The translations under genes and the position numbers were made by a program. The notes under the pieces were generated by a model that was not told where the DNA came from, ran no database searches, and saw only the letters and a list, made by a program, of their open reading frames with translations. 34,955 nt of DNA from a virus. Below are positions 5,744-34,955 of this stretch, piece after piece; within the stretch, counting starts at the first letter, position 1, and each line of letters opens with the position of its first letter. The stretch lies in UHGV virus genome UHGV-0055450; one strand, given 5' to 3'.

Positions 5744-5820
5744 TTACCGTTGAGGTAATAATTATGCGTATTTGGTTTGATGTCAATAGATATGAGTTAA
5801 AAAAATTACCCATCAGGTAA
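5744..5820 (-). promoter_or_regulatory. Leftward early promoter region with two operator palindromes (OL-like)
   Basis: Perfect TTACCgttgaGGTAA (5744-5758) and TTACCcatcaGGTAA (5806-5820) flank a perfect -35 TTGACA on the minus strand (plus-strand tgtcaa, 5781-5786). Confidence 0.5.
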
Positions 5821-5877: not shown

Positions 5878-6462
5878 TTATTGTTTGTTTTTTTCGTTCT
5901 GGTTGATGACAAATTCAATGTAACTTTCGATCTTTGCTTTCTCGGTTTCGGGTAACAATGCGTAGCGCGAGCGGTCATAGTTGATGGTCGCAGGGTCGTG
6001 CGGGTGAATCAGTAATTCATAGCCGTGACGCCCGAATGCGGATGCAACATTCTCCAGGGTGGAAATGGAAACGCTGACCTCATTGTTTAACAGGCGGCTG
6101 ATTGTCACCTGGGCGACGCCGGATGCGCGGTGAAGTTTTCCCTGTGTTGAAAGGTCGCGGCTTTCGCTCATCCAGCGTTCCAGGTTGTGAGCCGCCAGCT
6201 GACCAATGTCGCTTGGGCCGACAGGCTGAAAACCTTCCTGAGAAAGCGAGCGATCGATATCAAGCCAGTTACGGGGTTTATTGGCGGCAGCTTCAATTTT
6301 TCGCGCAACCTGGTCGCCGATAACCTTCTTGCCAAGAGCCCAGCGGTTTACCAGATTTGCCTGAGTTCCAAGTTTTTCTGCCATCCGCGTCTGAACACCA
6401 TTGAATTCACGGTCGATCAAGTCGTTGAGATTTTGCCTGCGGACGTCCTGGATACTTTTCAT
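5878..6462 (-). CDS. CI-like prophage repressor with two helix-turn-helix regions and no recognisable LexA-type autopeptidase domain
   Basis: 194 aa; HTH-like segments QTRMAEKLGTQANLVNRWALGKK and ASGVAQVTISRLLNNEVSVSISTLENVASAFG; no Ser/Lys peptidase motif seen; divergent from the cro-like gene across an operator-rich spacer. Confidence 0.75.
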   Translation of the reverse strand: MKSIQDVRRQNLNDLIDREFNGVQTRMAEKLGTQANLVNRWALGKKVIGDQVARKIEAAANKPRNWLDIDRSLSQEGFQPVGPSDIGQLAAHNLERWMSESRDLSTQGKLHRASGVAQVTISRLLNNEVSVSISTLENVASAFGRHGYELLIHPHDPATINYDRSRYALLPETEKAKIESYIEFVINQNEKNKQ

Positions 6463-6616: not shown

Positions 6617-6847
6617 ATGAGCGATAACGGACATTTCGATTTCAAAAAGCACTGGCTTGCACTTACTCCGGATGAGCGTGAAGCCTTCGCACAGGAAGCC
6701 GGAACGACGAGTCACTATATCCAGACTCACTTAACAGGTAAGCGCAAAATGCCAGGTAAAGTATTGATGAATGGGCTTTTTAAAGCCTGTAAAACAAGAC
6801 AGTGGTTGCGCTCAAAAGCAGAACTGGCATACTTCTTCTACTCATGA
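6617..6847 (+). CDS. Cro-like small DNA-binding regulator
   Basis: 76 aa, divergent from the repressor; HTH-like segment EAFAQEAGTTSHYIQTHLTG; position equivalent to cro. Confidence 0.6.
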   Translation: MSDNGHFDFKKHWLALTPDEREAFAQEAGTTSHYIQTHLTGKRKMPGKVLMNGLFKACKTRQWLRSKAELAYFFYS

Positions 6848-8928: not shown

Positions 8929-9276
8929 ATGAGAAAACAGATACAGGCTCTTGGTCGACTCAAAACAGGCCAGATGAACAAAACAGAATCTGCGTATTGC
9001 CAGCACCTTGAGCAGCGTAAACGTGCAGGGGAAATCGCCTGGTATCGATTCGAGGGTATCAAGCTGCGGTTAGCTGACAACACGTTCTATACGCCCGATT
9101 TCGCTGTGATGCTCGCCACCGGAGAGATGGAACTGCACGAAGTGAAAGGGGGATTCTGGACCGACGACGCCAGGGTGAAAACCAAAGTAGCCGCAGATCA
9201 GTATCCGTTCCGAATCATCGGGGTAACGGTTAAACCAAAGAAAGCAGGTGGCGGCTGGAACATCGAAGAGTTCTGA
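8929..9276 (+). CDS. DUF1064-type phage protein (possible nuclease fold)
   Basis: 115 aa; ESAYCQHLEQRKRAGEIAWYRFEGIKLRL...YTPDFAV...HEVKGG resembles the DUF1064 family common next to phage replication genes. Confidence 0.55.
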   Translation: MRKQIQALGRLKTGQMNKTESAYCQHLEQRKRAGEIAWYRFEGIKLRLADNTFYTPDFAVMLATGEMELHEVKGGFWTDDARVKTKVAADQYPFRIIGVTVKPKKAGGGWNIEEF

Positions 9277-15593: not shown

Positions 15594-15670
15594 TGGCGTG
15601 GCATGCAGGATTCGAACCTGCGACCAACCGCTTAGAAGGCGGTTGCTCTGTCCAACTGAGCTAATGCCAC
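15594..15670 (-). tRNA. tRNA-Arg (anticodon UCU), phage-borne variant
   Basis: Reverse complement GTGGCAT-TA-GCTC-AGTTGGACA-GAGC-A-ACCGC-CTTCTAA-GCGGT-TGGTC-GCAGG-TTCGAAT-CCTGC-ATGCCAC-G-CCA folds as a cloverleaf with a 7-bp acceptor stem, TCT anticodon and encoded CCA. Body resembles argU; stems differ. Confidence 0.85.
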
Positions 15671-25308: not shown

Positions 25309-28055
25309 TGCCTGTTGTTCCTACTACATCCGGACGCCAGGTGCAAAGTCGTGGTGTGCAAACCGGTGGTTTTCAGACCTTCGATGTTCCTCAAGCAGGT
25401 CAGGTGCTGGCGAATGTCGCAGATCAGTATGCGGTGGCATATGGTGAAGCTAGGCAGAAAGCGAATGTTGCTATGGCCCAGGAGGCGTTACTGCAATTTA
25501 ACCAATTTGCAGATGACCAGATTAACAACCCTGAAAATGGGCTGATTTCTAAACAGGGTAAAAACGCTCTTGGTCAGAGTGACGCTGTTATGAAAAATAT
25601 GCAGGAAAGGGCTCAGGCATTATTAGGCTCAATTCCTGAAAGTGAGGAAAGGAATAAATTATCCTTTCAACTCCAGCAGTCTATGCAGTCTTATTACAAT
25701 CAGGCACGTCGATATGAAGTTGGGCAGTTTCAGCAATTCCAAGATCAAACGTATTTGTCAGGAAATGCATTGGCTGTCACTCAGTCTGCGGGGCTATATA
25801 GCGATAACCAAGCATTTGTCGATTTAGCCAAGCAGCGATTTGAATCTATTGATCAATACGCTGATGCGCATGGGCTTCCTGATGAGTGGCGTGTTCAGCA
25901 GAAAACTCAGCTCAAGGAACAAATGGGGCAGCAAGCATGGATAGGAAATATCGCTCAAAAATACAACGAGTTTCTTCAGGTTAATGGAGAGCCAGGGGAT
26001 CTTGATGGTGTGAGTCGTGCAATATCACATGGTAATTCATTGGATGCTCGTGGTTTACGTAATAATAACCCTGGTAATATTGAAGCGAGCAAATCTAACC
26101 CGTGGGAAGGTCAGATCGGTAGTGATGGACGTTTTGCAACGTTTGCTACCCCTGAGCATGGAATCCGCGCGTTGGGTAAAAATATGTTGTCTTACCAGCG
26201 TCAAGGCTATGACACCGTTAGCGAGATTGTTAATCGCTATGCTCCGGCTAGTGATGGTAATAATACTGATGCTTATATTAGGGCATTGTGTAGTGAGCTT
26301 GGTGTTGGGGAGAATGATCAGCTTGATATCTCTAACCCAAAGACACTAGCTGCTTTATGTGCTGGGATTATTAAACACGAAAATGGCAGTATGCCTTATA
26401 GCACCGAACAGCTTGAAACTGGTATCTCGGCAGCCCTTGGTCTAACTAACCTTGATTCACCTAAGCGTTATACTGGCAATGCGGCATTTGACGCTATGAG
26501 CCCTCAAATGCAAATACAGGCATTGAGGCAGGCTAATGAGCTGAGAAATCAGTACCGCCAGCAGTATGCGGACCAGCTTAGCACCGTAGTTAAAGATGCA
26601 TATTCAGCCCTTGATGAAGGATTGAAACCTGAGAAGTTACCTTCTGAGGACGATTTTATCCGGGCCAATGGTCCGCGCATTGGCGCTATGAAGTGGAAGG
26701 ATATGCAGGCGCAGATACAATATGGAGGTGTCATTGGTGCCGCTAAAGACCTCACTCCAGAAGGACGACAAGACATTCTTGAACGTTTACGTCCACAGGA
26801 TCCAAATGTTCCTGGATTTGCAGCTAACCAGCAACGCTGGGAGAAAATGCAGGCCAAATTTAAAGAGATGGATAGGGAGTGGGAGATTCAGCAGGGAAGA
26901 AACAGGTTCGTGTCTTCAATGCAAAATAACTTCCCGCTGGACCCTAACGACAAAAACAATCAGGCAGCGGTAGACCGTTATTTCGCGCAGGATATCGCGC
27001 CTTCGTTTTCCATATCTGATCCGCAGAGCATCAATACACTGGTCACCGTCACAACTAAAAGCGGCATGATACCAACTCAGGTTAAAACAATGCTTAACAG
27101 TGGAGCAACATCAAGAGATCCTGCGCTGGTTGTCCCGATGGCAAAATTCTACGGTCAGTTATTCGATAATAATCCGGCGGCAGCGGCAACACTTGATAAA
27201 AGTACGATGGCATTTTACGGCAAGGTTTACGATTATTCCCGCGCTGGCGTGCCGGAGGATAAGGCTGTTGATATGGCTTACAGCCAGGTGTTCCAACAGG
27301 ATGACCGAATGAAACAGATGCTTTCCACTGCCATGCGAGACAAAAAATATGTCGCGGCGAGGGCAACTGCTGCACAAAATAACGCCAGCAGTCTGACTTC
27401 CTTTGGTTCGTGGTCTCCGGATATTACCGATCCAGGAAAATCAAATGCGGCCTATCAGCGAGATTACCAGACAATTTACGATGCTAACTTTGTACAGACA
27501 GGTGGCGATGCAGAACAGGCTGAGAAAATGACCAATGCCATGATCAGAACCACCTGGGGAGTTTCTACAGTTAATGGCAAAGCAGAGGTTATGAAGTATG
27601 CACCTGAGGCATTGTACGGAGTAAATAATGGTGCTGGTAACTGGATACAGGGGCAGTGGGAGCAGGAAAAACGCGAGCTTAAATCAAAATCCTTTGGCGG
27701 TCCTCGCAGTGATACGGACTTAATACTTGTTTCTGATGGCCTTACGGCAAGGGATAGGAGTTATGCTGTTATGGTTTTACAGCCTGACGCAAACGGAGCG
27801 ATAGAACCGAGAAATTATATTGGAGAAAATGGTCTCCCTGTTCGTTTCAAGCCGGATCAGCTGACATCTCCAATGTACAGGCAAACCATTCAGTTCCAGC
27901 AACAGCGTGTTGATGAGGCTAGAGTGCGGAGAGAAGGCAATCCGCTGCCGCAGTTCAGCAATAAAGATGGATATACTCCTCCAGATCTGACCAAACCATT
28001 CGGTTATGGTTCAGCCAATTACCTTCCGAGCAATATATACGCAGGGGGCAAATAA
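25308..28055 (+). CDS. Internal virion (core/ejection) protein, gp15-like, with a possible cell-wall hydrolase-like segment
   Basis: 915 aa with AGGAGG RBS; the segment LRNNNPGNIEASKSNPWEGQIGSDGRFATFATPEHGIRALGKNM resembles motifs in virion-associated murein hydrolases; this is inference. Confidence 0.55.
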   Translation: MPVVPTTSGRQVQSRGVQTGGFQTFDVPQAGQVLANVADQYAVAYGEARQKANVAMAQEALLQFNQFADDQINNPENGLISKQGKNALGQSDAVMKNMQERAQALLGSIPESEERNKLSFQLQQSMQSYYNQARRYEVGQFQQFQDQTYLSGNALAVTQSAGLYSDNQAFVDLAKQRFESIDQYADAHGLPDEWRVQQKTQLKEQMGQQAWIGNIAQKYNEFLQVNGEPGDLDGVSRAISHGNSLDARGLRNNNPGNIEASKSNPWEGQIGSDGRFATFATPEHGIRALGKNMLSYQRQGYDTVSEIVNRYAPASDGNNTDAYIRALCSELGVGENDQLDISNPKTLAALCAGIIKHENGSMPYSTEQLETGISAALGLTNLDSPKRYTGNAAFDAMSPQMQIQALRQANELRNQYRQQYADQLSTVVKDAYSALDEGLKPEKLPSEDDFIRANGPRIGAMKWKDMQAQIQYGGVIGAAKDLTPEGRQDILERLRPQDPNVPGFAANQQRWEKMQAKFKEMDREWEIQQGRNRFVSSMQNNFPLDPNDKNNQAAVDRYFAQDIAPSFSISDPQSINTLVTVTTKSGMIPTQVKTMLNSGATSRDPALVVPMAKFYGQLFDNNPAAAATLDKSTMAFYGKVYDYSRAGVPEDKAVDMAYSQVFQQDDRMKQMLSTAMRDKKYVAARATAAQNNASSLTSFGSWSPDITDPGKSNAAYQRDYQTIYDANFVQTGGDAEQAEKMTNAMIRTTWGVSTVNGKAEVMKYAPEALYGVNNGAGNWIQGQWEQEKRELKSKSFGGPRSDTDLILVSDGLTARDRSYAVMVLQPDANGAIEPRNYIGENGLPVRFKPDQLTSPMYRQTIQFQQQRVDEARVRREGNPLPQFSNKDGYTPPDLTKPFGYGSANYLPSNIYAGGK

Positions 28056-31000
28056 TGCCGATATATGAACAGGATCCTAAAGAGTTGCTTGGCGAGGATA
28101 TTCAGCAAATAGCAGCACCTGATGACAGTAATTTCTATATGGAAACACCTTCTTTGCTTTCTGCTGTGAACCCATTTACCAGTGAGCAACGCGTTCAAAG
28201 GTCTAGACAAGCAGCATTTCGTATAGATAACACGCTGGGTAGCTTTATTGCCAGTGCTCCTTTCAGTCAGTTTGACAGGGTTGAAGGATATAACCCATTT
28301 GATAACGATGCAGCAGATATTAAAGGCTATGAAGATTTTGCAGATTCGTTTATCAACTCCGGTTCGCATGAAGAAACAATGGCAATTAAACATCGAATCG
28401 ATAAGCAAAGAACAGATAGAGAATATCTATCTGAAATGGGTGGTGCTGGTACTATTTCAAGCTTAGCAATGGGAATGATAGACCCGGTTAATGTGGCTGC
28501 AATGTTCATCCCTGTAGGGGCGGTAGCGCGTGGAGGAAGTATTGCTGAGACGGCAGGGCGTTTTGCCCTGGCGAATGCTGCTGGTGGGGGAGTATCAGAA
28601 GCCGCATTACAGGCCACTCAGGAAGCTCGCTCACCGATGGAGAGCGTATCGAACGTTGTTGTTGATGCTCTCGTTGGTGGGATCCTTGGTGCTGGTGCAC
28701 AGCTACTTGCTGGACCTAGCGCGCGCGAGGCAGTGGTTAACTCAGTAGGTAATCATTTGCGAGGTATGGATTCTCCTCAAAGCATTGGTGCAGCTCAGGT
28801 TTTCAATACCACACTCGATCAGGAACAGCTCGCTGGACTTGGACTTGCTAACAAAACGTTGAGTGTCACTCCTGCTGGCCGCTTGGCGCAATCACCATCT
28901 CTTGTCTCCCGTCAGATTAACCAGCAGCTTGCCGAAAATAACTATTTCTTCGCCAAAAATGATGAGGGGTTGGCTACGTTTACGGCAGTCGAGACTAAGA
29001 TTAAGCAATACGACGCCATGCTTTATAAGCAGATGGAAGCTACTCGTGATGCTTACCAGCAGTACAGCAAATCTGTCAGCGCCCGCGGCGTGAAGAGGAT
29101 GAACTTTATTGATTTCAATGAAGCTGTTGGCATGGCTATGCGCCGTGGTGATCAGAGTGATATTCCTGAGGTTTCACAAGCAGCCGCCAGAATCCGCCCC
29201 ATTTTTGAGACCACAAAAGCCCGTATGCAGGAATTGGGGATCCTTCCTGAGGATATCGATGTCGTGACGGCGAAGAGTTATCTTCCCCGCATTTATAAGT
29301 TCGATAAGATACTTTCCGACCGCACTGAATTCAGAGGGCGAATTGCCAACTGGATACAAGGGATTAGTGCCAAAGGTGCTGACAAAGCAGGTCAGCGAAT
29401 TGAAAAGATAAATTCATTGCTAAAAACTGCAGAGGAATCAGCACCGCGCGCTGATGCTCTCGCTAGTGAAATCGCTGAAGCGGAGAAATGGTCTGGTAAA
29501 AAAATTCTACTCATGGAAGAACTGGATAAACGAAATAAGCTTATATCTCAGGAGACTGACACACAGGCGCGTCTTACAAGAATAGAAAAAGAGTTGGCCG
29601 AGACTTCATCAGAAAAACTTCAGGCAAGAATGATGAAAGAAAGCTCTGACCTTAAAACACGCCTTGATGATATAGCGCAGGCAAAGAGTGAGCTTCCTGT
29701 CTATCAGCGCCATATGGAGTTGCTGGATAATCCACGGAAATATCGTTCTGAGCTTCGCCGACTGCAAAAACGGGCAAATTCAACCACAAGGCTGAATGCA
29801 AGCCGCGAGCGAGCACTGAAGCAGATGGAGCCTCTATCCCGAGAGGAAGCAGAGGACGCTGCTGACGAGATCGTGAATAAAATAATAGGCGCACCTTCCG
29901 GGCTTGTACCAGCCGATATTATCCCAGAGAGACTCGTTGGTCGGGCTGGTTTCACTAAAAGCAGAACGCTGCTTATTCCTGATGAGCGTATAGAAGATTT
30001 TCTTGAATCAGATGTTAACTACATCATGGAAAGTTATCTCCGGCAGGTGGCACCAGAAATTGAGCTGACTGCGCAGTTTGGCCGTAAAGATATGGGGGAG
30101 CAAATCCGTCAGGTTAGTGAGGAATATACCCGGCTAATAAAAGAGGCTAAAACACCTAAACGACGTGCAGTTCTTGAGAAGCAACGGGAGGCTGATATTA
30201 GGGATATTACGGCTATGCGTGATCGACTGCTTGGTACTTACGGTGCACCTCAAGATCCACGCAGTTTCTTTGTTCGTGCCGGGCGAGTTGCTAGGAATAT
30301 TAACTTCCTCCGTTTGCTTGGTGGAATGACTGTCTCCGCTGCAACTGATCTGATGCGACCGATGATGCAGCATGGCCTGAGAAAATCTCTCGGACCAATG
30401 GTAAGCATGCTTAAAAATATGGACTCAGTAAAAATTGCAACCAGGGATTTGCGAGAAATGGCAGTTGGGCTTGATTATGTCCTGTCTACGCGTACAAAGG
30501 CTATAGCGGATCTTACTGACCCCTATAGCCGGAGAAGCGCCGCTGAGCGAGGTCTGAACTGGATGACGCAGAAATTCGGTAACTGGACGCTGATGAATCA
30601 GTGGAACAGCGCACTTAAATCATGGTCTGGGATGATAGTGCAGTCGAGGATACTTGACGCGGCTCGCCAAGTTTCTGCTGGTGGCACGCTCTCCAAAAGT
30701 GAAATGCGGAAGATGGCACAGGTCGGCATCAATGAAGATGTTCTGCGCCGAATCGGGGAGCAATTCGGGAAGCACGGAGAGGATATGGACGGGCTGTTAA
30801 CCGGGCATAGTCATCTGTGGGATGACCGTTTCGCTAGAGAGATTTTCCAGTCTGCAGTGCTGAAAGATGTAGACTCAGTGATTGTAACGCCTGGCGTAGG
30901 TGATACACCGCTGTTTTTTAGTAAAGAAGGCTGGAAGATGATCACGCAGTTCAAAACGTTTATCTTCGCACAGCATAACAGGGTGCTGGTATCTGGTATC

Positions 31001-31444
31001 CAGCAGGGCGATGCTGCATTCTATCTTGGTGCGCTTGGCACGATTGCGCTTGGCTCAATGGTCTATATGATGAAACAGAAGTTAAGCGGTCGCGATATCG
31101 ACTACAGCTGGAATAACCTTGTGAAAGAGGGGATCGACCGGGGCGGAATGCTTGGCTGGCTCTCTGAGCCGCTGAATACCGTTGAGAACATAAGCGGCGG
31201 TAGGTTTGGTCTTGGCGCGATGTTTGGTGCGCCTCCGGTATCAAGGTTTCAGAGTCGTAATGCTATTGGTGCTTTACTTGGTCCTACCTTTGATCTTGGC
31301 GGTGATGCCGCGACGGTTGCAAATGGTGTACTTAACGGAGAATTTGACAGCCAGCAAACCCACGCTGTCCGTAAAATGCTACCTTTTCAGAATCTGTGGG
31401 CGATATCACCATTACTAAATAAAGTTGAAGAGCAGATGAAATAG
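28055..31444 (+). CDS. Large internal virion / DNA-ejection protein, gp16-like
   Basis: 1129 aa with long coiled-coil stretches; last gene of the core block before the cargo genes. Confidence 0.55.
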   Translation: MPIYEQDPKELLGEDIQQIAAPDDSNFYMETPSLLSAVNPFTSEQRVQRSRQAAFRIDNTLGSFIASAPFSQFDRVEGYNPFDNDAADIKGYEDFADSFINSGSHEETMAIKHRIDKQRTDREYLSEMGGAGTISSLAMGMIDPVNVAAMFIPVGAVARGGSIAETAGRFALANAAGGGVSEAALQATQEARSPMESVSNVVVDALVGGILGAGAQLLAGPSAREAVVNSVGNHLRGMDSPQSIGAAQVFNTTLDQEQLAGLGLANKTLSVTPAGRLAQSPSLVSRQINQQLAENNYFFAKNDEGLATFTAVETKIKQYDAMLYKQMEATRDAYQQYSKSVSARGVKRMNFIDFNEAVGMAMRRGDQSDIPEVSQAAARIRPIFETTKARMQELGILPEDIDVVTAKSYLPRIYKFDKILSDRTEFRGRIANWIQGISAKGADKAGQRIEKINSLLKTAEESAPRADALASEIAEAEKWSGKKILLMEELDKRNKLISQETDTQARLTRIEKELAETSSEKLQARMMKESSDLKTRLDDIAQAKSELPVYQRHMELLDNPRKYRSELRRLQKRANSTTRLNASRERALKQMEPLSREEAEDAADEIVNKIIGAPSGLVPADIIPERLVGRAGFTKSRTLLIPDERIEDFLESDVNYIMESYLRQVAPEIELTAQFGRKDMGEQIRQVSEEYTRLIKEAKTPKRRAVLEKQREADIRDITAMRDRLLGTYGAPQDPRSFFVRAGRVARNINFLRLLGGMTVSAATDLMRPMMQHGLRKSLGPMVSMLKNMDSVKIATRDLREMAVGLDYVLSTRTKAIADLTDPYSRRSAAERGLNWMTQKFGNWTLMNQWNSALKSWSGMIVQSRILDAARQVSAGGTLSKSEMRKMAQVGINEDVLRRIGEQFGKHGEDMDGLLTGHSHLWDDRFAREIFQSAVLKDVDSVIVTPGVGDTPLFFSKEGWKMITQFKTFIFAQHNRVLVSGIQQGDAAFYLGALGTIALGSMVYMMKQKLSGRDIDYSWNNLVKEGIDRGGMLGWLSEPLNTVENISGGRFGLGAMFGAPPVSRFQSRNAIGALLGPTFDLGGDAATVANGVLNGEFDSQQTHAVRKMLPFQNLWAISPLLNKVEEQMK

Positions 31445-31445
31445 G

Positions 31446-32297
31446 ATGAAAAAAATAAATTTGTTTTTTGGCATAGTGCTTTCAATAGTCTCTGTAAATC
31501 CTACAGCTGCCAGTTCATTGCAATGCAATAAGGATAACTTTGATGCATGCAAAACGTGCGAACAATTATCAAAGGCTATCGACTTAAAAGAACCTAATCG
31601 TGGCGATTACTATAGAGGGGCTTTATGGAATGGGCTTTACGCCTCTTATGTAATTAATTGCCCTGTGGTTGCAGAGAAGTTACTGAGCCATGGTGCTATA
31701 CCATCATATGGCGGATATATGGGGTCTATGGGGGCGGTTCTGACAGGAAAATGGCCTCATAACAATGAATCAATAAATCTTTCATGGGCAGATTTGCTTA
31801 TAAAACATGGATTTGATGTTAATAGGCATACGGGGAATTATAAATCAGCTACTGAAGTATGGGCTATAGATAAAAAACAGATTGAATATAAGTCAGTTTT
31901 TGACAAGTTAATTCAATCCAGCGAAGTAAAACCACTCGATCCTTCAAGAAATTTAGAATGGTGTGCGTCTGAAGGGTATCGCTCAGTTGTCGTTTATTCC
32001 CTTAACTCATGTATAGAAAATGCTATAAAACGTTTGGATGACGGTGTTTCTTCAGCGTCTGATATTTCATCAGCAGCCGTAAATTCCTGTACTAGCGATG
32101 TAGAAAATTTCAATAAGCATTTGGCATGCAAAGCAGCTGTTAAAGAAAACTCTGATAAAGAGAGAAGCAACGTTTACCAGTTATTAACCAGTGATAGTCA
32201 AATGAATAAAAATGTTATTGATATGCTGAAGGAAAGAAATATTGAAACGGTTCTTGAATTTAGAGCTGAAAATCGATCAGCGAAAACTGCACAGTGA
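31446..32297 (+). CDS. Secreted Cys-rich cargo protein with possible ankyrin-like repeats
   Basis: Signal-peptide-like N-terminus MKKINLFFGIVLSIVSVNPTAASS; ankyrin-like segments VAEKLLSHGAIPS and ADLLIKHGFDVNRHTG; visibly AT-rich relative to flanking phage genes; own terminator. Confidence 0.6.
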   Translation: MKKINLFFGIVLSIVSVNPTAASSLQCNKDNFDACKTCEQLSKAIDLKEPNRGDYYRGALWNGLYASYVINCPVVAEKLLSHGAIPSYGGYMGSMGAVLTGKWPHNNESINLSWADLLIKHGFDVNRHTGNYKSATEVWAIDKKQIEYKSVFDKLIQSSEVKPLDPSRNLEWCASEGYRSVVVYSLNSCIENAIKRLDDGVSSASDISSAAVNSCTSDVENFNKHLACKAAVKENSDKERSNVYQLLTSDSQMNKNVIDMLKERNIETVLEFRAENRSAKTAQ

Positions 32298-32310
32298 TCA
32301 AACAGGCCGC

Positions 32311-32335
32311 TTTCGCGGCCTTGTTTTTAACGAAT
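32311..32335 (+). terminator. Rho-independent terminator for the secreted-protein gene
   Basis: AGGCCGC-(TTTC)-GCGGCCT followed by TGTTTTT. Confidence 0.65.
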
Positions 32336-32375
32336 GCCACCGCCGCCTGGGTGGGAATCCGCAGACACAAAAAAG

Positions 32376-32396
32376 CCCGCGCCGCGGGCTATTCTT
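32376..32396 (-). terminator. Rho-independent terminator for the convergent leftward gene
   Basis: Minus strand reads GCCCGC-(GGC)-GCGGGC followed by TTTTTT. Confidence 0.6.
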
Positions 32397-32829
32397 CTTC
32401 ATCATAAAAAAGCGGATTGTCGTTTCCATCTGATGAAAGGAAAGGTATGTGTTCTCTTGAAAATCCAACAACGACAATTTCATTATCATTTTTTGCATAA
32501 TGAATGCATTCATTAGAATGCATTCCGCCAGGGTTGAAATTTAAGTTAATGGTATAATTCTTAAATGTGTTTGGATACCATGTTGGCCCACAATGATAAT
32601 GCCAATAATTCTCTTGCTCATAATTGTCTGAGCCGGGAATTTTATCATGGTTATCATCAACCCACGATGGCTTGTTTTTTCCAACAAGCGCCCTTCCATT
32701 GGCAACATCTTCTAAAAACCTTTGTATGATTTTTATTTCATCGTCAGTAAGGAAAGGTCCGTCTACAGCGAAATGGGTGTTGCTTTCCCCATTTAGAAAA
32801 CTATTAGATATTCTAATGTTAAACTTCAA
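32389..32829 (-). CDS. Hypothetical AT-rich cargo protein (146 aa)
   Basis: TTG start with AGGAG 7 nt upstream; contains NYWHYHCGPTWYPNTF and an acidic C-terminus; convergent with the secreted-protein gene. Confidence 0.5.
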   Translation of the reverse strand: MKFNIRISNSFLNGESNTHFAVDGPFLTDDEIKIIQRFLEDVANGRALVGKNKPSWVDDNHDKIPGSDNYEQENYWHYHCGPTWYPNTFKNYTINLNFNPGGMHSNECIHYAKNDNEIVVVGFSREHIPFLSSDGNDNPLFYDEEE

Positions 32830-32849
32830 GACAAACTCCTAATGTGCTT

Positions 32850-33017
32850 CTATTTGGAGCGAAATGCCGCCTTGAAGTCGCTGAAAGATGTTCCTGTCTG
32901 GTAAACCATATCCTTGTCGCGCTCTTTGCTTGCGCGGCCAAGCATAACTTTTCCAATGACATCCCAGCATTGCTTGGCTTGTTCATTGTGCTGAGTACGA
33001 TTTTTCAACGCTGTCAT
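32850..33017 (-). CDS. Hypothetical small protein (55 aa)
   Basis: Hand-translated MTALKNRTQHNEQAKQCWDVIGKVMLGRASKERDKDMVYQTGTSFSDFKAAFRSK*; AAGGAGG lies 6 nt upstream of the ATG; below the track length cutoff. Confidence 0.4.
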   Translation of the reverse strand: MTALKNRTQHNEQAKQCWDVIGKVMLGRASKERDKDMVYQTGTSFSDFKAAFRSK

Positions 33018-33029
33018 ATCGCGCCTCCT

Positions 33030-33044
33030 TTACCTTTAAGGTAA
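33030..33044. promoter_or_regulatory. Operator palindrome overlapping the RBS of the 55-aa gene
   Basis: Perfect TTACCtttaaGGTAAtagtac; on the minus strand its half-site runs directly into the AGGAGG Shine-Dalgarno. Confidence 0.5.
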
Positions 33045-33115
33045 TAGTACGCTATTCACCCCCAGTCTGCAATCTGTACAGAATTATTTAAAGGCACGTC
33101 CCTGTGCCGCCGCCG

Positions 33116-33808
33116 TCAGAAGAACCCAGCCTTGTCGTTGATGTACTCCGCGTGTGTCTGGATATCACGCAGGCATTTGCTCACACCGACGATGTAGCAG
33201 AACATGGTGGTCAGCTCCGCCGCCGCGCCCGATACGTCGTGCCCGTCGTCCTGTAACTGGTTCAGCAGATTCATCAGCAGTGAGTTCTCCGTCAGGCCGA
33301 GAACACCAGACGGCGAATGAATCAGGCTGCGGTAGCCGGGCTTCAGCGGGGCGCTGTAGGTTTTGTTCTCTATCTTCATTGCCTGCATCACTGCTGATGC
33401 TGTGGCGTTTGCAACCTGGTCGGCAACCATCTTTATGCGTTCTTCCTGCGGGAGCGAGTTTTTAATGTAACTTCCGGTGCGGCGGATCTGAGGAAGAACC
33501 TCACCTGTAACCCATTCAAGAAATCTGAATGCTCTCGTTCCCTCAGTCATTGCCTCTTTGCAACGCAGAATAAGGATGTAGAGACCTGATTCTGAAACGA
33601 TGGATAGTTCTTGTATTCCACCAGGGGTCTGTATTGAATACAGCCCCTTTTTGTTCCAGCCTTTTTTATCAAGTTTTCTCGCTTGTGTAACATCAATATT
33701 CAAAGCATTGCACACATCTTTGGTGACAAACCAAGGTTCTCCGTCAATCATGAACATACGGATCTGGCAGGATGACTCAAAGGAAAAGATGGAAGGTTTG
33801 GTATTCAT
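33116..33808 (-). CDS. ant: Antirepressor with N-terminal Bro-N-like domain
   Basis: MNTKPSIFSFESSCQIRMFMIDGEPWFVTKDVCNALNI fits the Bro-N/antirepressor N-terminal pattern; ATG at 33808 with AAGGTGA upstream. The track ORF extends to 33853. Confidence 0.75.
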   Translation of the reverse strand: MNTKPSIFSFESSCQIRMFMIDGEPWFVTKDVCNALNIDVTQARKLDKKGWNKKGLYSIQTPGGIQELSIVSESGLYILILRCKEAMTEGTRAFRFLEWVTGEVLPQIRRTGSYIKNSLPQEERIKMVADQVANATASAVMQAMKIENKTYSAPLKPGYRSLIHSPSGVLGLTENSLLMNLLNQLQDDGHDVSGAAAELTTMFCYIVGVSKCLRDIQTHAEYINDKAGFF

Positions 33809-33962
33809 GGCGATCACCTTTGTAGTTAGGTTAATCACCACCGCTGAGACCAATCAGATGGTGGTGAACTGTGCAGAGTTGGTCTTACCGGCTACAAAGG
33901 AACCCGGCGCACCTTTCGGTGCCCCCACACAGCCCACCATAGAATAGGTGCGCTTTACACAT

Positions 33963-33981
33963 AAAAAAACCGCTTATGCGG
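33963..33981 (-). terminator. Weak rho-independent terminator upstream of ant
   Basis: Minus strand reads CCGC-ATAA-GCGG followed by seven T; short stem. Confidence 0.4.
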
Positions 33982-33994
33982 CATATGTGCCTCT

Positions 33995-34049
33995 GTAGTA
34001 ATCCGGGAGACCAATCCCGGCACTGGATTTTGCCAGTGCCCGATTACTA
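33995..34049 (-). ncRNA. Candidate structured regulatory RNA or attenuator between the two antirepressor genes
   Basis: Outer stem TAGTAATC / GATTACTA encloses two hairpins, GCACTGG-(CAAAAT)-CCAGTGC and CGGGA-(TTGGTC)-TCCCG, and is followed by the terminator at 33963-33981; no ORF. Confidence 0.25.
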
Positions 34050-34075
34050 TGGCACAAGAGGAGTGCGATGTAAAT

Positions 34076-34090
34076 TTACCGCAAAGGTAA
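34076..34090. promoter_or_regulatory. Operator palindrome between the Ant-paralog and ant
   Basis: Perfect TTACCgcaaaGGTAAatataag. Confidence 0.5.
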
Positions 34091-34121
34091 ATATAAGCAC
34101 TCCATTTGGTAATTGCAAACC

Positions 34122-34379
34122 TTATCTGGTTTGTTTTCGTAATTGTTCGGCACAATAGTCGAGATGTGTTTGCAGATCCTGCATAGACATCTGTGAGCTG
34201 GTGACGTAGTTAATCAGTGCAGTCAGTTCGGCAAGTGGGCCATCGACATTAAATCCATCCTTATCGAGATCCCGGAGTAATTTCATCAAGTGCGATCCCT
34301 CCACCAGTGACCTGACGCCTCCCGGCGTGTGAATCCTTTCGGTAAATCCGTCTTCCAGTGGATAGTGATACTGCTGCAT
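34122..34379 (-). CDS. Small protein homologous to the antirepressor C-terminal domain (about 85 aa)
   Basis: SHLMKLLRDLDKDGFNVDGPLAELTALINYVTSSQMSMQDLQTHLDYC aligns with the Ant C-terminus SLLMNLLNQLQDDGHDVSGAAAELTTMFCYIVGVSKCLRDIQTHAEYI; ATG at 34379 with GGAGAAG upstream. The track ORF extends to 34397. Confidence 0.6.
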   Translation of the reverse strand: MQQYHYPLEDGFTERIHTPGGVRSLVEGSHLMKLLRDLDKDGFNVDGPLAELTALINYVTSSQMSMQDLQTHLDYCAEQLRKQTR

Positions 34380-34398
34380 CTTATCTTCTCCATGCAAT

Positions 34399-34418
34399 AA
34401 CTGTATATTTATACAGTA
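34399..34418. promoter_or_regulatory. LexA (SOS) box in the promoter of the leftward antirepressor operon
   Basis: AACTGTATATTTATACAGTA matches the consensus TACTGTATATATATACAGTA at 18 of 20 positions with the CTGT-N8-ACAG core intact; 20 bp upstream of the 34379 start. Confidence 0.65.
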
Positions 34419-34455
34419 TCAAATAATTTGTTTGCTATCCAGCACGTTTTGCAAA

Positions 34456-34470
34456 TTACCCGAAAGGTAA
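34456..34470. promoter_or_regulatory. Operator palindrome between the ant operon and the tailspike gene
   Basis: Perfect TTACCcgaaaGGTAAtatctat. Confidence 0.5.
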
Positions 34471-34574
34471 TATCTATTCGTATTTACAGTCTTTCTATCC
34501 ATATGTGGTTTTTTGGGTAATAGAATAACCAGATATGCGGCGCAACGGGTGCTGCGACTATCTGGAGATTTAAC

Positions 34575-34955
34575 ATGACGGTCTCAACCGAAGTTGACCA
34601 CAACGAATACACAGGTAACGGCGTTACGACATCATTTCCGTATACCTTCCGTATTTTCAAAAAATCCGACCTGGTTGTTCAGGTGTCTGACCTGAACGGG
34701 AACGTAACAGAATTGGTTCTGGATACCGGTTATACGGTAACTGGGGCGGGCACTTATAGTGGCGGTTCTGTGGTTCTTCCGTCGCCGCTTGCTGCTGGCT
34801 GGCGAATTACGATAGATCGTGTGCTTGATGTGGTGCAGGAGACAGACCTTCGCAATCAGGGAAAGTTTTTCCCCGAAGTGCATGAGGATGCCTTTGACTA
34901 TCTGACGATGCTGATCCAGCAATGTTTTATTTTGGAAATTTTCTTTATAAAACAT
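34575..34955 (+). CDS. Tail fibre / tailspike protein, N-terminal adaptor domain (3' end outside the window)
   Basis: ATG at 34575 with GGAG 7 nt upstream; MTVSTEVDHNEYTGNGVTTSFPYTFRIFKKSDLVVQV... resembles the T7 gp17 N-terminal tail-attachment domain; open to the window edge and absent from the ORF track. Confidence 0.7.
   Translation, partial: MTVSTEVDHNEYTGNGVTTSFPYTFRIFKKSDLVVQVSDLNGNVTELVLDTGYTVTGAGTYSGGSVVLPSPLAAGWRITIDRVLDVVQETDLRNQGKFFPEVHEDAFDYLTMLIQQCFILEIFFIKH

Follow-up and report, generated by a model that had tools for sequence, protein, structure and literature searches.

The window (the whole stretch of 34,955 nt analysed, virus genome UHGV-0055450) is an epsilon15-like Escherichia coli prophage (Uetakevirus, phiV10-type). 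Taken together, its features are very probably best explained by an immunity-override region in which two antirepressor modules follow each other on the minus strand (Table 1). The first module, assigned by close homology, would place a small antirepressor gene (ant) under LexA; the second, recognized from its anatomy and from covariation, would control a Bro-N antirepressor gene by an IsrK-type sRNA and a C4-type antisense RNA. The supported reading of the first module, a LexA-controlled antirepressor acting on an uncleavable repressor, is already known from the related Salmonella phage SPC32H, and the second module is by analogy of the known P1 immI / Gifsy-1 isrK design. About 10 % of the complete E. 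coli genomes carry this locus, which lies, as the preliminary description had it, between the tailspike gene (starting at 34575) and a large gene of the internal-virion/ejection type (28055-31444). The phiV10-type prophages include O157 typing phages.

Table 1 Features of the antirepressor locus and of the repressor gene in the window
Feature	Position	Strand	Basis or remark
rep, 194-aa repressor, presumed Ant target	5878..6462	-	two HTH domains, no peptidase domain
Second antirepressor, 230 aa, Bro-N + Ant-like C-terminal domain	33116..33808	-	Pfam Bro-N E 1.8e-13; PHROG anti-repressor families
C4 targets, Bro-N gene leader	33817..33853	-	a2 UUGGUCU (33853..33847), b2 CUACAAAGG (33825..33817)
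C4-type antisense RNA	33857..33944	-	Rfam RF01695, 78.6 bits (gathering 45), E 6e-14, model positions 1-87, full length
IsrK-type sRNA	33963..34039	-	Rfam RF01394, 74.7 bits (gathering 50), E 2e-14, full length
PisrK promoter	34046..34074	-	TTTACA, 17-nt spacer, (TG)CATAGT; promoter scan
TTACC-N5-GGTAA	34076..34090	.	one base upstream of isrK promoter -35
ant, 85-aa antirepressor	34122..34379	-	ATG at 34379, RBS GGAGAAG; homology to SPC32H Ant
LexA (SOS) box AACTGTATATTTATACAGTA	34399..34418	.	direct read; PWM 27.4 bits
Candidate ant promoter	34413..34441	-	-35 TGGATA (34441..34436), 17-nt spacer, -10 TACTGT (34418..34413)
TTACC-N5-GGTAA, putative Rep operator	34456..34470	.	between ant and tailspike gene; in 9/9 relatives

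A near-consensus SOS box about 20 bp upstream of the leftward genes had been proposed, and it was found exactly at the proposed location, with 19 nt between its proximal edge and the ant ATG. Read on the minus strand, the box is TACTGTATAAATATACAGTT and agrees at 18 of 20 positions with the E. coli LexA consensus, TACTGTATATATATACAGTA. When a symmetrised position weight matrix (PWM) trained on 21 E. coli SOS boxes (themselves scoring 12.9 to 26.5 bits) was applied, the box scored 27.4 bits, the runner-up in the window 13.4 bits and the maximum of 100 shuffles 18.4 bits. It is the sole strong LexA site in the window. The pattern CTGT-N8-ACAG occurs four times in the window (0.6 expected) and only the copy in the box is a good site; those at 6787, 15463 and 20005 were rejected as SOS boxes, with PWM scores of at most 10 bits, inside the shuffle range.

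The box is kept upstream of ant in nine Uetakevirus genomes (phages of Escherichia, Salmonella, Enterobacter and Klebsiella), in a conserved position with variable flanks. The sequence CTGGATAG is unchanged in eight of the nine aligned relatives, and the Klebsiella phage has CTGGAAAA. SPC32H and SPC32N differ by only two bases in the 5.2-kb locus, and one of these, a C-to-A change, falls within the CAG arm of this box. SPC32N is reportedly a lytic variant of SPC32H, and the single mutation of the box is reported to make Ant constitutive. A chance or vestigial box, with induction of the prophage proceeding by some other route, is highly improbable, given its score above every training site and every shuffle, its fixed position in phages of four host genera, the box change in the reportedly lytic SPC32N, and the induction of relatives by mitomycin C and, for prophages of the phiV10 species, by a microcin that damages DNA. 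The one observation in favor of such a route is the high level of spontaneous phage release from a lysogen of ZX5 (PMC9782041), a phage with Ant and Rep identical to those of the window. Mitomycin C does induce the same lysogen, and lysogeny fell when its Bro-N anti-repressor, the only protein treated as anti-repressor in that study, was over-expressed (PMC9782041).

The ant product matched the SPC32H anti-repressor (PDB 5D50_E) over residues 2-84 with an E-value of 4e-47 and 88 % identity (tblastn), and the homologous gene is labelled ant in the SPC32H record. It had been regarded as a small homolog of an Ant C-terminal domain. The homology holds (42 % identity to the C-terminal 74 aa of the Bro-N protein), but an accessory role does not, as its SPC32H counterpart is the established antirepressor. 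No Pfam or NCBIfam family was found for Ant, and NCBIfam gave no match for Ant, Bro-Ant or the adjacent cargo genes. When 50,697 phage records were searched by tblastn with Ant (E<=1e-5), 35 records were returned, all of them epsilon15-like/Uetakevirus-type phages or Klebsiella relatives.

The candidate ant promoter (TGGATA-17-TACTGT) is the best sigma-70 candidate in eight of nine aligned relatives. At about 6 bits, with agreement at 7 of 12 consensus positions, it is a weak candidate, and a consensus promoter scan at ant gave no match of 9/12 or better. Its -10 hexamer coincides with the six bases that open the LexA box and is conserved in any case as part of it; the box itself is strong and conserved, but it overlaps an ant promoter only through this predicted one. 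A different -35, TTGCAA (34454..34449, adjoining the palindrome), was considered by analogy with the isrK promoter and was ranked lower because its -10 partner varies among relatives. LexA on the box would overlie both the -10 element of the ant promoter and the region of its start and keep Ant off, and Ant would be made once LexA is cleaved after DNA damage. The core idea of the preliminary description, an antirepressor silenced by LexA, is supported by the closeness to the experimentally tested SPC32H system, in the near identity of Ant, the homology of Rep and the SPC32N change in the box.

The repressor had also been thought non-cleavable, and this was borne out. Only HTH domains (HTH_3 and YdaS-type) were found in Rep by Pfam, and no S24 peptidase domain was detected in the 10 scanned proteins of the integrase, early-left and replication regions. 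Rep is 100 % identical to the phiV10 repressor and matched SPC32H Rep (PDB 5D50_A) over residues 1-190 with an E-value of 4e-42 and 41.8 % identity. Ant occurs in 35 phage records and Rep in 37, the two sets of phages being all but the same. In SPC32H-type Salmonella prophages, LexA cleavage leads to antirepressor synthesis and the repressor is inhibited (PMC7380047, citing Kim & Ryu 2013); the Ant tetramer disrupts the Rep tetramer (PMC9638917). This switch is described in Kim & Ryu 2013, J Virol 87:11775 and Kim et al. 2016, PNAS 113:E2480, with structures PDB 5D50, in which Ant is bound to its repressor, and 5D4Z. SPC32H shares with the window the genus, an ant gene that lies directly upstream of the tailspike gene and is transcribed away from it, the LexA box-ant ATG distance, the palindrome described below, and a homologous two-HTH Rep without protease domain. 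Rep is far less similar than Ant in the two phages, so that binding of Rep by Ant in the present prophage is an extrapolation from SPC32H. In SPC32H, ant is followed by convergent genes without a second module, whereas the window adds the isrK-C4-Bro-N/Ant-C cassette.

The palindrome TTACC-N5-GGTAA occurs 10 times in the window (0.04 expected). Copies at 5744, 5806 and 6518 flank rep: two stand on either side of a TTGACA promoter immediately downstream of rep, and the third is placed between rep and cro. We predict that Rep binds the palindrome, which would give putative Rep operators at the early-left, early-right and several other promoters. Ant would then bind Rep and strip it from these operators, and their release would start lytic growth, as early promoters are among them. 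It is unlikely that another conserved factor (the Cro-like 76-aa protein alone, a late regulator or a host protein) binds the palindrome instead of Rep, with the ant-side sites serving the divergent tailspike promoter. This alternative would fit the presence of the same core palindrome in epsilon15 (11 copies), whose Rep is 42 % identical, the copies in front of late units (terminase, 12833; head genes, 15993; tailspike, 34456), and a second motif, TATGTGGTT, found with three rightward units. Binding by Rep is favored by the classic operator positions around rep, by a putative recognition-helix segment (NLVNRW) common to the aligned Rep proteins of the window and SPC32H, and by the epsilon15 RefSeq record, where the site homologous to 34456..34470 is annotated as protein_bind 'repressor, lysogeny'. 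In addition, Rep has been described as binding 'palindromic DNA sites' (PMC9638917).

Three copies of the palindrome had been assigned to the antirepressor operon. Two of them are there (34456 and 34076); the third, at 33030, lies 72 bp beyond the range given for the operon and precedes the next leftward gene (32850-33017). The copy at 34456 is about 57 bp upstream of the predicted ant start. SPC32H has the same palindrome, and the SPC32N box change adjoins it. If the box mutation does make Ant constitutive, the palindrome alone does not hold ant off. For the second module, with its palindrome adjoining the isrK -35, the dual control by LexA and a phage regulator suggested before is plausible.

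The -10 of PisrK ends 6 nt before the 5' end of the Rfam IsrK match (34039), and its -10 region, TTGTGCCATAGT, is unchanged in five relatives. The palindrome was found upstream of isrK in all five Uetakevirus modules examined and was absent at isrK in the modules of APSE-7, VT2-Sakai, SfV and Mcat4. Among the modules compared, this putative operator 1 nt upstream of the PisrK -35 is confined to Uetakevirus. The IsrK fold, a rho-independent terminator (33982..33969 plus a U-run) and the predicted promoter are all present, together with the motifs a1 UUGGUCU (34014..34008) and b1 CUACAGAGG (33998..33990). In VT2-Sakai, the Rfam family c4-a1b1 (RF03163) overlaps isrK.

The C4-type RNA carries b' CCUUUGUAG (33900..33892) in a hairpin loop and a' AGACCAA (33885..33879). 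The complementarity of a' to a2 (7 nt) and of b' to b2 (9 nt) is exact, b2 overlaps the Shine-Dalgarno sequence of the Bro-N gene (AAGGTGAT), and all six motifs (a'/a2/a1 and b'/b2/b1) covary across nine modules. We used complementarity and covariation because the duplex energies, calculated without intramolecular structure, discriminated only weakly between the C4 targets and shuffled ones (24 and 13 of 500 shuffles reached the observed value). PisrK would produce terminated IsrK and, by read-through, C4 followed by the Bro-N/Ant-C gene. The a'/b' loops of C4 would pair with a2/b2 across the ribosome-binding site and block translation of this gene, and IsrK, which has the same a1/b1 motifs, could titrate C4 as in P1 immI and Gifsy-1 isrK-anrP.

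The presence of a full Bro-N antirepressor gene, claimed earlier, was verified by the domain and family matches in Table 1. The C-terminus of the protein also matched SPC32H Ant (E-value 1.6e-13), and the whole protein is 80 % identical to the ZX5 ORF4 anti-repressor. No separate ORF was found between C4 and the Bro-N ATG, the sole upstream start (TTG 33853) being in frame with the gene. The VT2-Sakai module does have a small upstream ORF of the icd/orf45 type. The Ant downstream of the VT2-Sakai isrK-C4 cassette has no homology to the Bro-Ant of the window, so the RNA cassette and the protein are separable.

The two genes had been described as one simple operon behind the LexA box. This part of the description was not upheld, as the Bro-N gene has its own promoter and is separated from ant by the IsrK terminator and C4. 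It is quite improbable that both genes form a single LexA-controlled operon in which SOS simply co-induces both antirepressors, even though they lie on the same strand 313 bp apart, encode homologous C-terminal domains, and have no terminator meeting the scan criteria between the ant stop codon and isrK. An internal promoter with a -10 fitting the IsrK 5' end, the intrinsic terminator of IsrK and an antisense RNA complementary to the Bro-N ribosome-binding site all argue for two modules. So does the distribution of the parts: about 900 bp is inserted between ant and isrK in TL-2011b, ant stands alone in SPC32H, epsilon15 and BUCT554, where the second module is missing entirely, and Stx phages, SfV, APSE and a Moraxella phage carry the isrK-C4 cassette on its own.

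Even with two modules, SOS-induced ant transcripts probably reach IsrK, as no strong terminator lies between ant and isrK, and we infer that such read-through would couple the modules. A 7-bp inverted repeat (GGAGTGC/GCACTCC) surrounds the 34076 palindrome; it fails the terminator criteria (4 T in the next 8 nt) and could halt some ant transcripts before isrK. On this basis a relay can be put forward tentatively, as a possibility with the odds against it. SOS-induced ant transcripts ending at the IsrK terminator would yield Ant protein together with an a1/b1 'sponge' for C4. PisrK would be derepressed once Rep is lost, IsrK would come into excess over C4, and the Bro-N/Ant protein would be translated, either to make induction permanent or to target heteroimmune prophages resident in the same cell. 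Two C4 specificity types occur among phages with identical Rep and Ant, the window/Tyrion type and the phiV10/ZX5 type. If the relay were true, these types would be a second, RNA-based immunity layer in Uetakevirus, as between P1 and P7.

The module was compared with other known systems. The P1/P7 immI region (c4-icd-ant) is reportedly under the control of C4 antisense RNA and of the C1 operator Op51 (Citron & Schuster 1990). As in immI, a C4-family RNA is cotranscribed with its target, the a'/b' loops would pair with a2/b2 over the ribosome-binding site before an antirepressor gene, copies of a1/b1 lie upstream, an operator of the primary repressor (putative in the window) is at the promoter, and specificity types differ between close relatives (see PMC7313666 for the C4 mechanism). 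Unlike immI, the window has a terminated IsrK sRNA as its a1/b1 element, an antirepressor protein unrelated to P1 Ant, and no icd-like ORF; b2 therefore covers the Shine-Dalgarno sequence of the antirepressor itself. In the Gifsy-1 isrK-orf45-anrP system (Hershko-Shalev et al. 2016, PMC4825925), IsrK, an Hfq-binding sRNA, is likewise made from a promoter of its own and ends at a leaky terminator, and the read-through transcript contains a processed C4-like RNA (STnc1160) and an antirepressor gene that is untranslated until IsrK acts in trans. The window is laid out in the same way, but lacks an orf45-type coupling ORF and has the module directly downstream of an SOS-controlled ant, with a putative Uetakevirus operator.

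The resemblance to 186 Tum and the Gifsy phages, proposed in the preliminary description, holds for the logic, as in 186 and Gifsy/Fels-2 LexA represses a small antirepressor of an uncleavable repressor (Shearwin 1998; Lemire 2011, PMC3121763). The closest system is instead SPC32H, of the same genus; Ant showed no sequence relationship to Tum, GfoA or GfhA in the tblastn and family searches described above. The P22 immI region (mnt-arc-ant, sar RNA) occupies the same interval between ejection genes and tailspike and also subjects an antirepressor to additional RNA and protein control. No Arc- or Mnt-like ORF was found in this region of the window, and the P22_AR_N match (17.6 bits) is under the Pfam cutoff of 30.7. 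P22 ant is not known to be LexA-controlled, and the P22 C2 repressor is cleavable.

The SPC32H-type circuit would explain how DNA damage can induce phiV10-type prophages even though their repressor is not cleaved, and it bears on prophage induction by antibiotics and bacteriocins. As the mechanism is already established for SPC32H, little is added beyond correct annotation. The modest new points are the tandem layout, in which an SOS-controlled Ant is immediately followed by an Ant paralogue under IsrK/C4 control, and the occurrence of the C4 module in switchable specificity types. In many records, the small ant gene is still named 'hypothetical protein'.

An SOS (LexA) box, AACTGTATATTTATACAGTA, is present in front of a leftward antirepressor gene (ant), as proposed in the preliminary description. 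Eighteen of its 20 positions agree with the E. coli SOS consensus, and 19 nt separate its edge from the ant ATG. Of the loose pattern CTGT-N8-ACAG, the window contains four matches where 0.6 would be expected. When scored with a symmetrised weight matrix of 21 E. coli SOS boxes, the box reached 27.4 bits, more than every training site (12.9-26.5), the second-best window position (13.4) and the maximum over 100 shuffles (18.4). In an alignment of the sequences upstream of ant in nine phages (from Escherichia, Salmonella, Enterobacter and Klebsiella), flanks are variable, and the box (18 to 28 bits across the aligned relatives) is conserved with constant spacing to the ATG. The best sigma-70 candidate was TGGATA-17-TACTGT in eight of the nine, its -10 hexamer being the first six bases of the box. 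This candidate promoter is weak, and its occlusion by LexA is an inference.

Phages SPC32H and SPC32N differ at only two positions in a 5.2-kb locus. At one of them the CAG arm of the box has become AAG in SPC32N, and the score falls from 25.2 to 18.6 bits, in agreement with Kim and Ryu, who reportedly found that a single LexA-site change gives constitutive Ant and a lytic phage.

Features of the antirepressor locus and palindromes in the window
Feature	Coordinates	Strand	Details
Candidate ant promoter (sigma-70)	-35 TGGATA 34441..34436; -10 TACTGT 34418..34413	minus	17-nt spacer; predicted
SOS (LexA) box	34399-34418		AACTGTATATTTATACAGTA; read directly
ant	ATG at 34379	minus	85 aa; RBS GGAGAAG
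isrK promoter-like site	34074..34046	minus	TTTACA-17-(TG)CATAGT; predicted
IsrK	34039..33963	minus	Rfam, full length, 74.7 bits
IsrK intrinsic terminator	33982..33969	minus	
C4 antisense RNA	33944..33857	minus	Rfam, full length, 78.6 bits
Bro-N gene	ATG 33808 to 33116	minus	230 aa; Bro-N domain
Palindromes (TTACC-N5-GGTAA)	5744, 5806, 6518, 8849, 8911, 12833, 15993, 33030, 34076, 34456		

Ant shares 88% identity with the annotated ant product of SPC32H and SPC32N and matches PDB 5D50 chain E ('Anti-repressor protein', E 4e-47). The repressor, Rep (5878-6462, minus strand; 194 aa), matches chain A of that entry ('Repressor', E 4e-42); its identity is 100% with the phiV10 repressor and 41.8% with SPC32H Rep. 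It has two helix-turn-helix domains and the domain search found no peptidase domain, in line with the earlier suggestion of a non-cleavable repressor; an S24 domain was absent from all ten other integrase, early-left and replication-region proteins scanned. According to PMC7380047 (citing Kim & Ryu 2013), LexA self-cleavage in SPC32H-type Salmonella prophages leads to production of an antirepressor that inhibits the repressor via protein-protein contact. According to PMC9638917, the SPC32H Ant tetramer binds two Rep dimers, which breaks the DNA-binding Rep tetramer. Mitomycin C raises a ZX5 lysogen, with identical Ant and Rep, from 10^7 to 10^9 PFU/mL (PMC9782041). A DNA-damaging microcin induces phiV10-species prophages 21- to 47-fold.

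The core reading, that LexA silences the antirepressor of an uncleavable repressor, is right but already published, with SPC32H Rep/Ant/LexA as the closest known system (same genus; homologous Ant, Rep and box). Coliphage 186 Tum and the Gifsy phages, to which the circuit had been matched, share its logic, but homology to their systems was not detected. P22 immI has nothing but its map position in common with the locus.

The two leftward antirepressor genes had been described as a single operon. A Bro-N domain was found, and the last 74 residues of the Bro-N protein share 42% identity with Ant. However, IsrK, C4, a promoter-like site and a terminator lie between the genes, which form two modules instead. 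The promoter-like site stops 6 nt short of the IsrK 5' end. The two modules can be separated: ant stands alone in SPC32H, epsilon15 and BUCT554, and TL-2011b has an insertion of about 900 bp between ant and isrK. The Bro-N protein is 80% identical to ZX5 ORF4 (last 120 residues nearly identical), over-expression of which lowers lysogeny a thousand-fold (PMC9782041). In Klebsiella phage ST512-KPC3phi13.3 (463-2437), two small ant homologues lie in tandem, both preceded by a palindrome of their own, and are followed by an isrK-C4 cassette and then an antirepressor; evidently, antirepressor modules stack at the ant locus.

In the second module, the C4 hairpin loop CCUUUGUAG (33900..33892) is the exact complement of CUACAAAGG (33825..33817), a stretch overlapping the Bro-N gene's Shine-Dalgarno sequence AAGGTGAT. 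UUGGUCU, which occurs at 33853..33847 and again in an IsrK loop (34014..34008), is the complement of the C4 junction AGACCAA (33885..33879), and IsrK CUACAGAGG pairs with the C4 loop, one G-U pair included. Nine isrK-C4 modules were compared (window, phiV10, TL-2011b, Tyrion, a Klebsiella prophage, APSE-7, VT2-Sakai, SfV and a Moraxella phage). All six motifs (a and b in IsrK, C4 and the Bro-N leader) switch together; examples are the a-motif variants AGACCAA/TTGGTCT, ACGCCAA/TTGGCGT and GTCTCAA/TTGAGAC and b-motif variants CCTTTGTAG, CCTTTTAG, TCCTTGTTAG and TCCTTGATC. In VT2-Sakai, the Rfam family for 'a1, b1 targets of C4' overlaps isrK. The cassette was found in 237 phage records, ahead of unrelated antirepressors.

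This module is also of a known kind. Its design matches P1 immI (PMC7313666) and is common to the Gifsy-1 isrK-orf45-anrP locus, where transcription past the IsrK terminator yields an antirepressor mRNA that is not translated until IsrK turns it on in trans (PMC4825925). The small coupling ORF of P1 and Gifsy-1 is missing from the window, whose b2 target therefore covers the antirepressor's own ribosome-binding site. What is added is minor: the tandem arrangement, and two C4 specificity types with identical Rep and Ant (window/Tyrion versus phiV10/ZX5). The first (a' AGACCAA, b' CCTTTGTAG) occurs in the window (33857-34039), Tyrion and the Klebsiella prophage, and the second (a' ACGCCAA, b' CCTTTTAG) in phiV10, ZX5 and TL-2011b. 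The phages that carry these two C4/IsrK specificity sets share an identical Rep and a near-identical Ant, and the joint switch of all six motifs recalls P1/P7 immI heteroimmunity.

Where 0.04 copies of the palindrome TTACC-N5-GGTAA, a putative Rep operator, would be expected, the window has 10. A TTGACA promoter immediately downstream of rep has a copy on either side, a further copy separates rep from the cro-like gene and another is in the ant/tailspike divergent region; others precede the replication-distal unit, terminase genes, head genes, a 55-aa ORF and isrK. Almost every transcription unit is fronted by one, the late terminase, head and tailspike units included. This dispersed network resembles that of P1 C1 more than lambda cI, and homologous sites are labelled 'repressor, lysogeny' (a prediction) in the epsilon15 RefSeq record. 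Three copies had been assigned to the antirepressor operon; those at 34456 and 34076 fall within the coordinates given for it, and the one at 33030 lies beyond them, before the next leftward gene.

Dual control by LexA and the phage regulator is likely for the second module, where the palindrome stops one base before the isrK -35. All five of the Uetakevirus modules compared have it there, and the cassettes of other phage groups lack it, which fits a phage-specific operator like P1's Op51. For ant, the predicted start is about 57 bp downstream of the palindrome centre; SPC32H also has this palindrome, and the SPC32N box change adjoins it. If the box mutation alone frees Ant, as Kim and Ryu reportedly found, repression by the palindrome's ligand cannot be tight, and dual control of ant is doubtful.

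Between the ant stop codon and isrK, no terminator meeting the scan criteria was found, so the 3' end of SOS-induced ant transcripts would contain the IsrK a1/b1 element. With Rep inactivated, the isrK promoter should in turn open. Together these suggest a possible relay from SOS-induced ant to the second antirepressor. The 34076 palindrome is framed by a 7-bp inverted repeat (GGAGTGC...GCACTCC, 34097-34054), which may act both as an operator and, on ant transcripts, as a weak terminator. The right-arm TTTACA is present in the window, ZX5, TL-2011b, Tyrion and the Klebsiella prophage; phiV10 has a perfect 18+5+18 palindrome upstream of isrK, without a TTTACA -35.

The 2.1 kb around the locus is 91-98% identical to Escherichia phages EC.W1-9, ZX5, phiv142-3, TL-2011b and phiV10 (genus Uetakevirus, epsilon15-like podophages). 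Judged by gene order (integrase, RecT/exonuclease, repressor, cro-like gene, replication genes, terminase, portal, internal virion proteins and tailspike), the window is an integrated epsilon15-like genome. Region 33100-34580 was matched in 543 of 5,426 complete E. coli genomes, with at least 80% covered in 182 of the 543.

Several other features were observed. GTACTATTACC, a palindrome fused to a TACTAT -10-like hexamer, occurs at 5806 (minus), 12833 (plus) and 33030 (minus). TATGTGGTT occurs three times on the plus strand (8897, 16051 and 34502), always 31-43 nt past a palindrome and ahead of a rightward unit (the DUF1064 gene at 8929, the head-gene unit and the tailspike); the epsilon15 record has predicted IHF sites at equivalent places. 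A tRNA-Arg(TCT) gene (15594-15670, minus) lies between the terminase and portal genes, and a perfect leftward TTGACA -35 about 16 nt upstream of the 15993 palindrome may mark its promoter and operator.

Cargo genes (31446-33017) separate the ejection gene from the antirepressor modules: a plus-strand 283-aa protein (phrog_6118) with a signal-peptide-like N-terminus, and a leftward pair of 55 and 146 aa (phrog_8607, phrog_5954) without Pfam or NCBIfam match. A palindrome is directly upstream of the AGGAGG ribosome-binding site of the 55-aa ORF. A YafO-type toxin occupies the corresponding position in TL-2011b. The window's last 27 bases (34929-34955, from about tailspike codon 118) match no relative; this is the usual border at which the conserved N-terminal head-binding domain gives way to a swapped receptor-binding domain, and E. 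coli homologues have endosialidase, GH28 or SGNH modules there.
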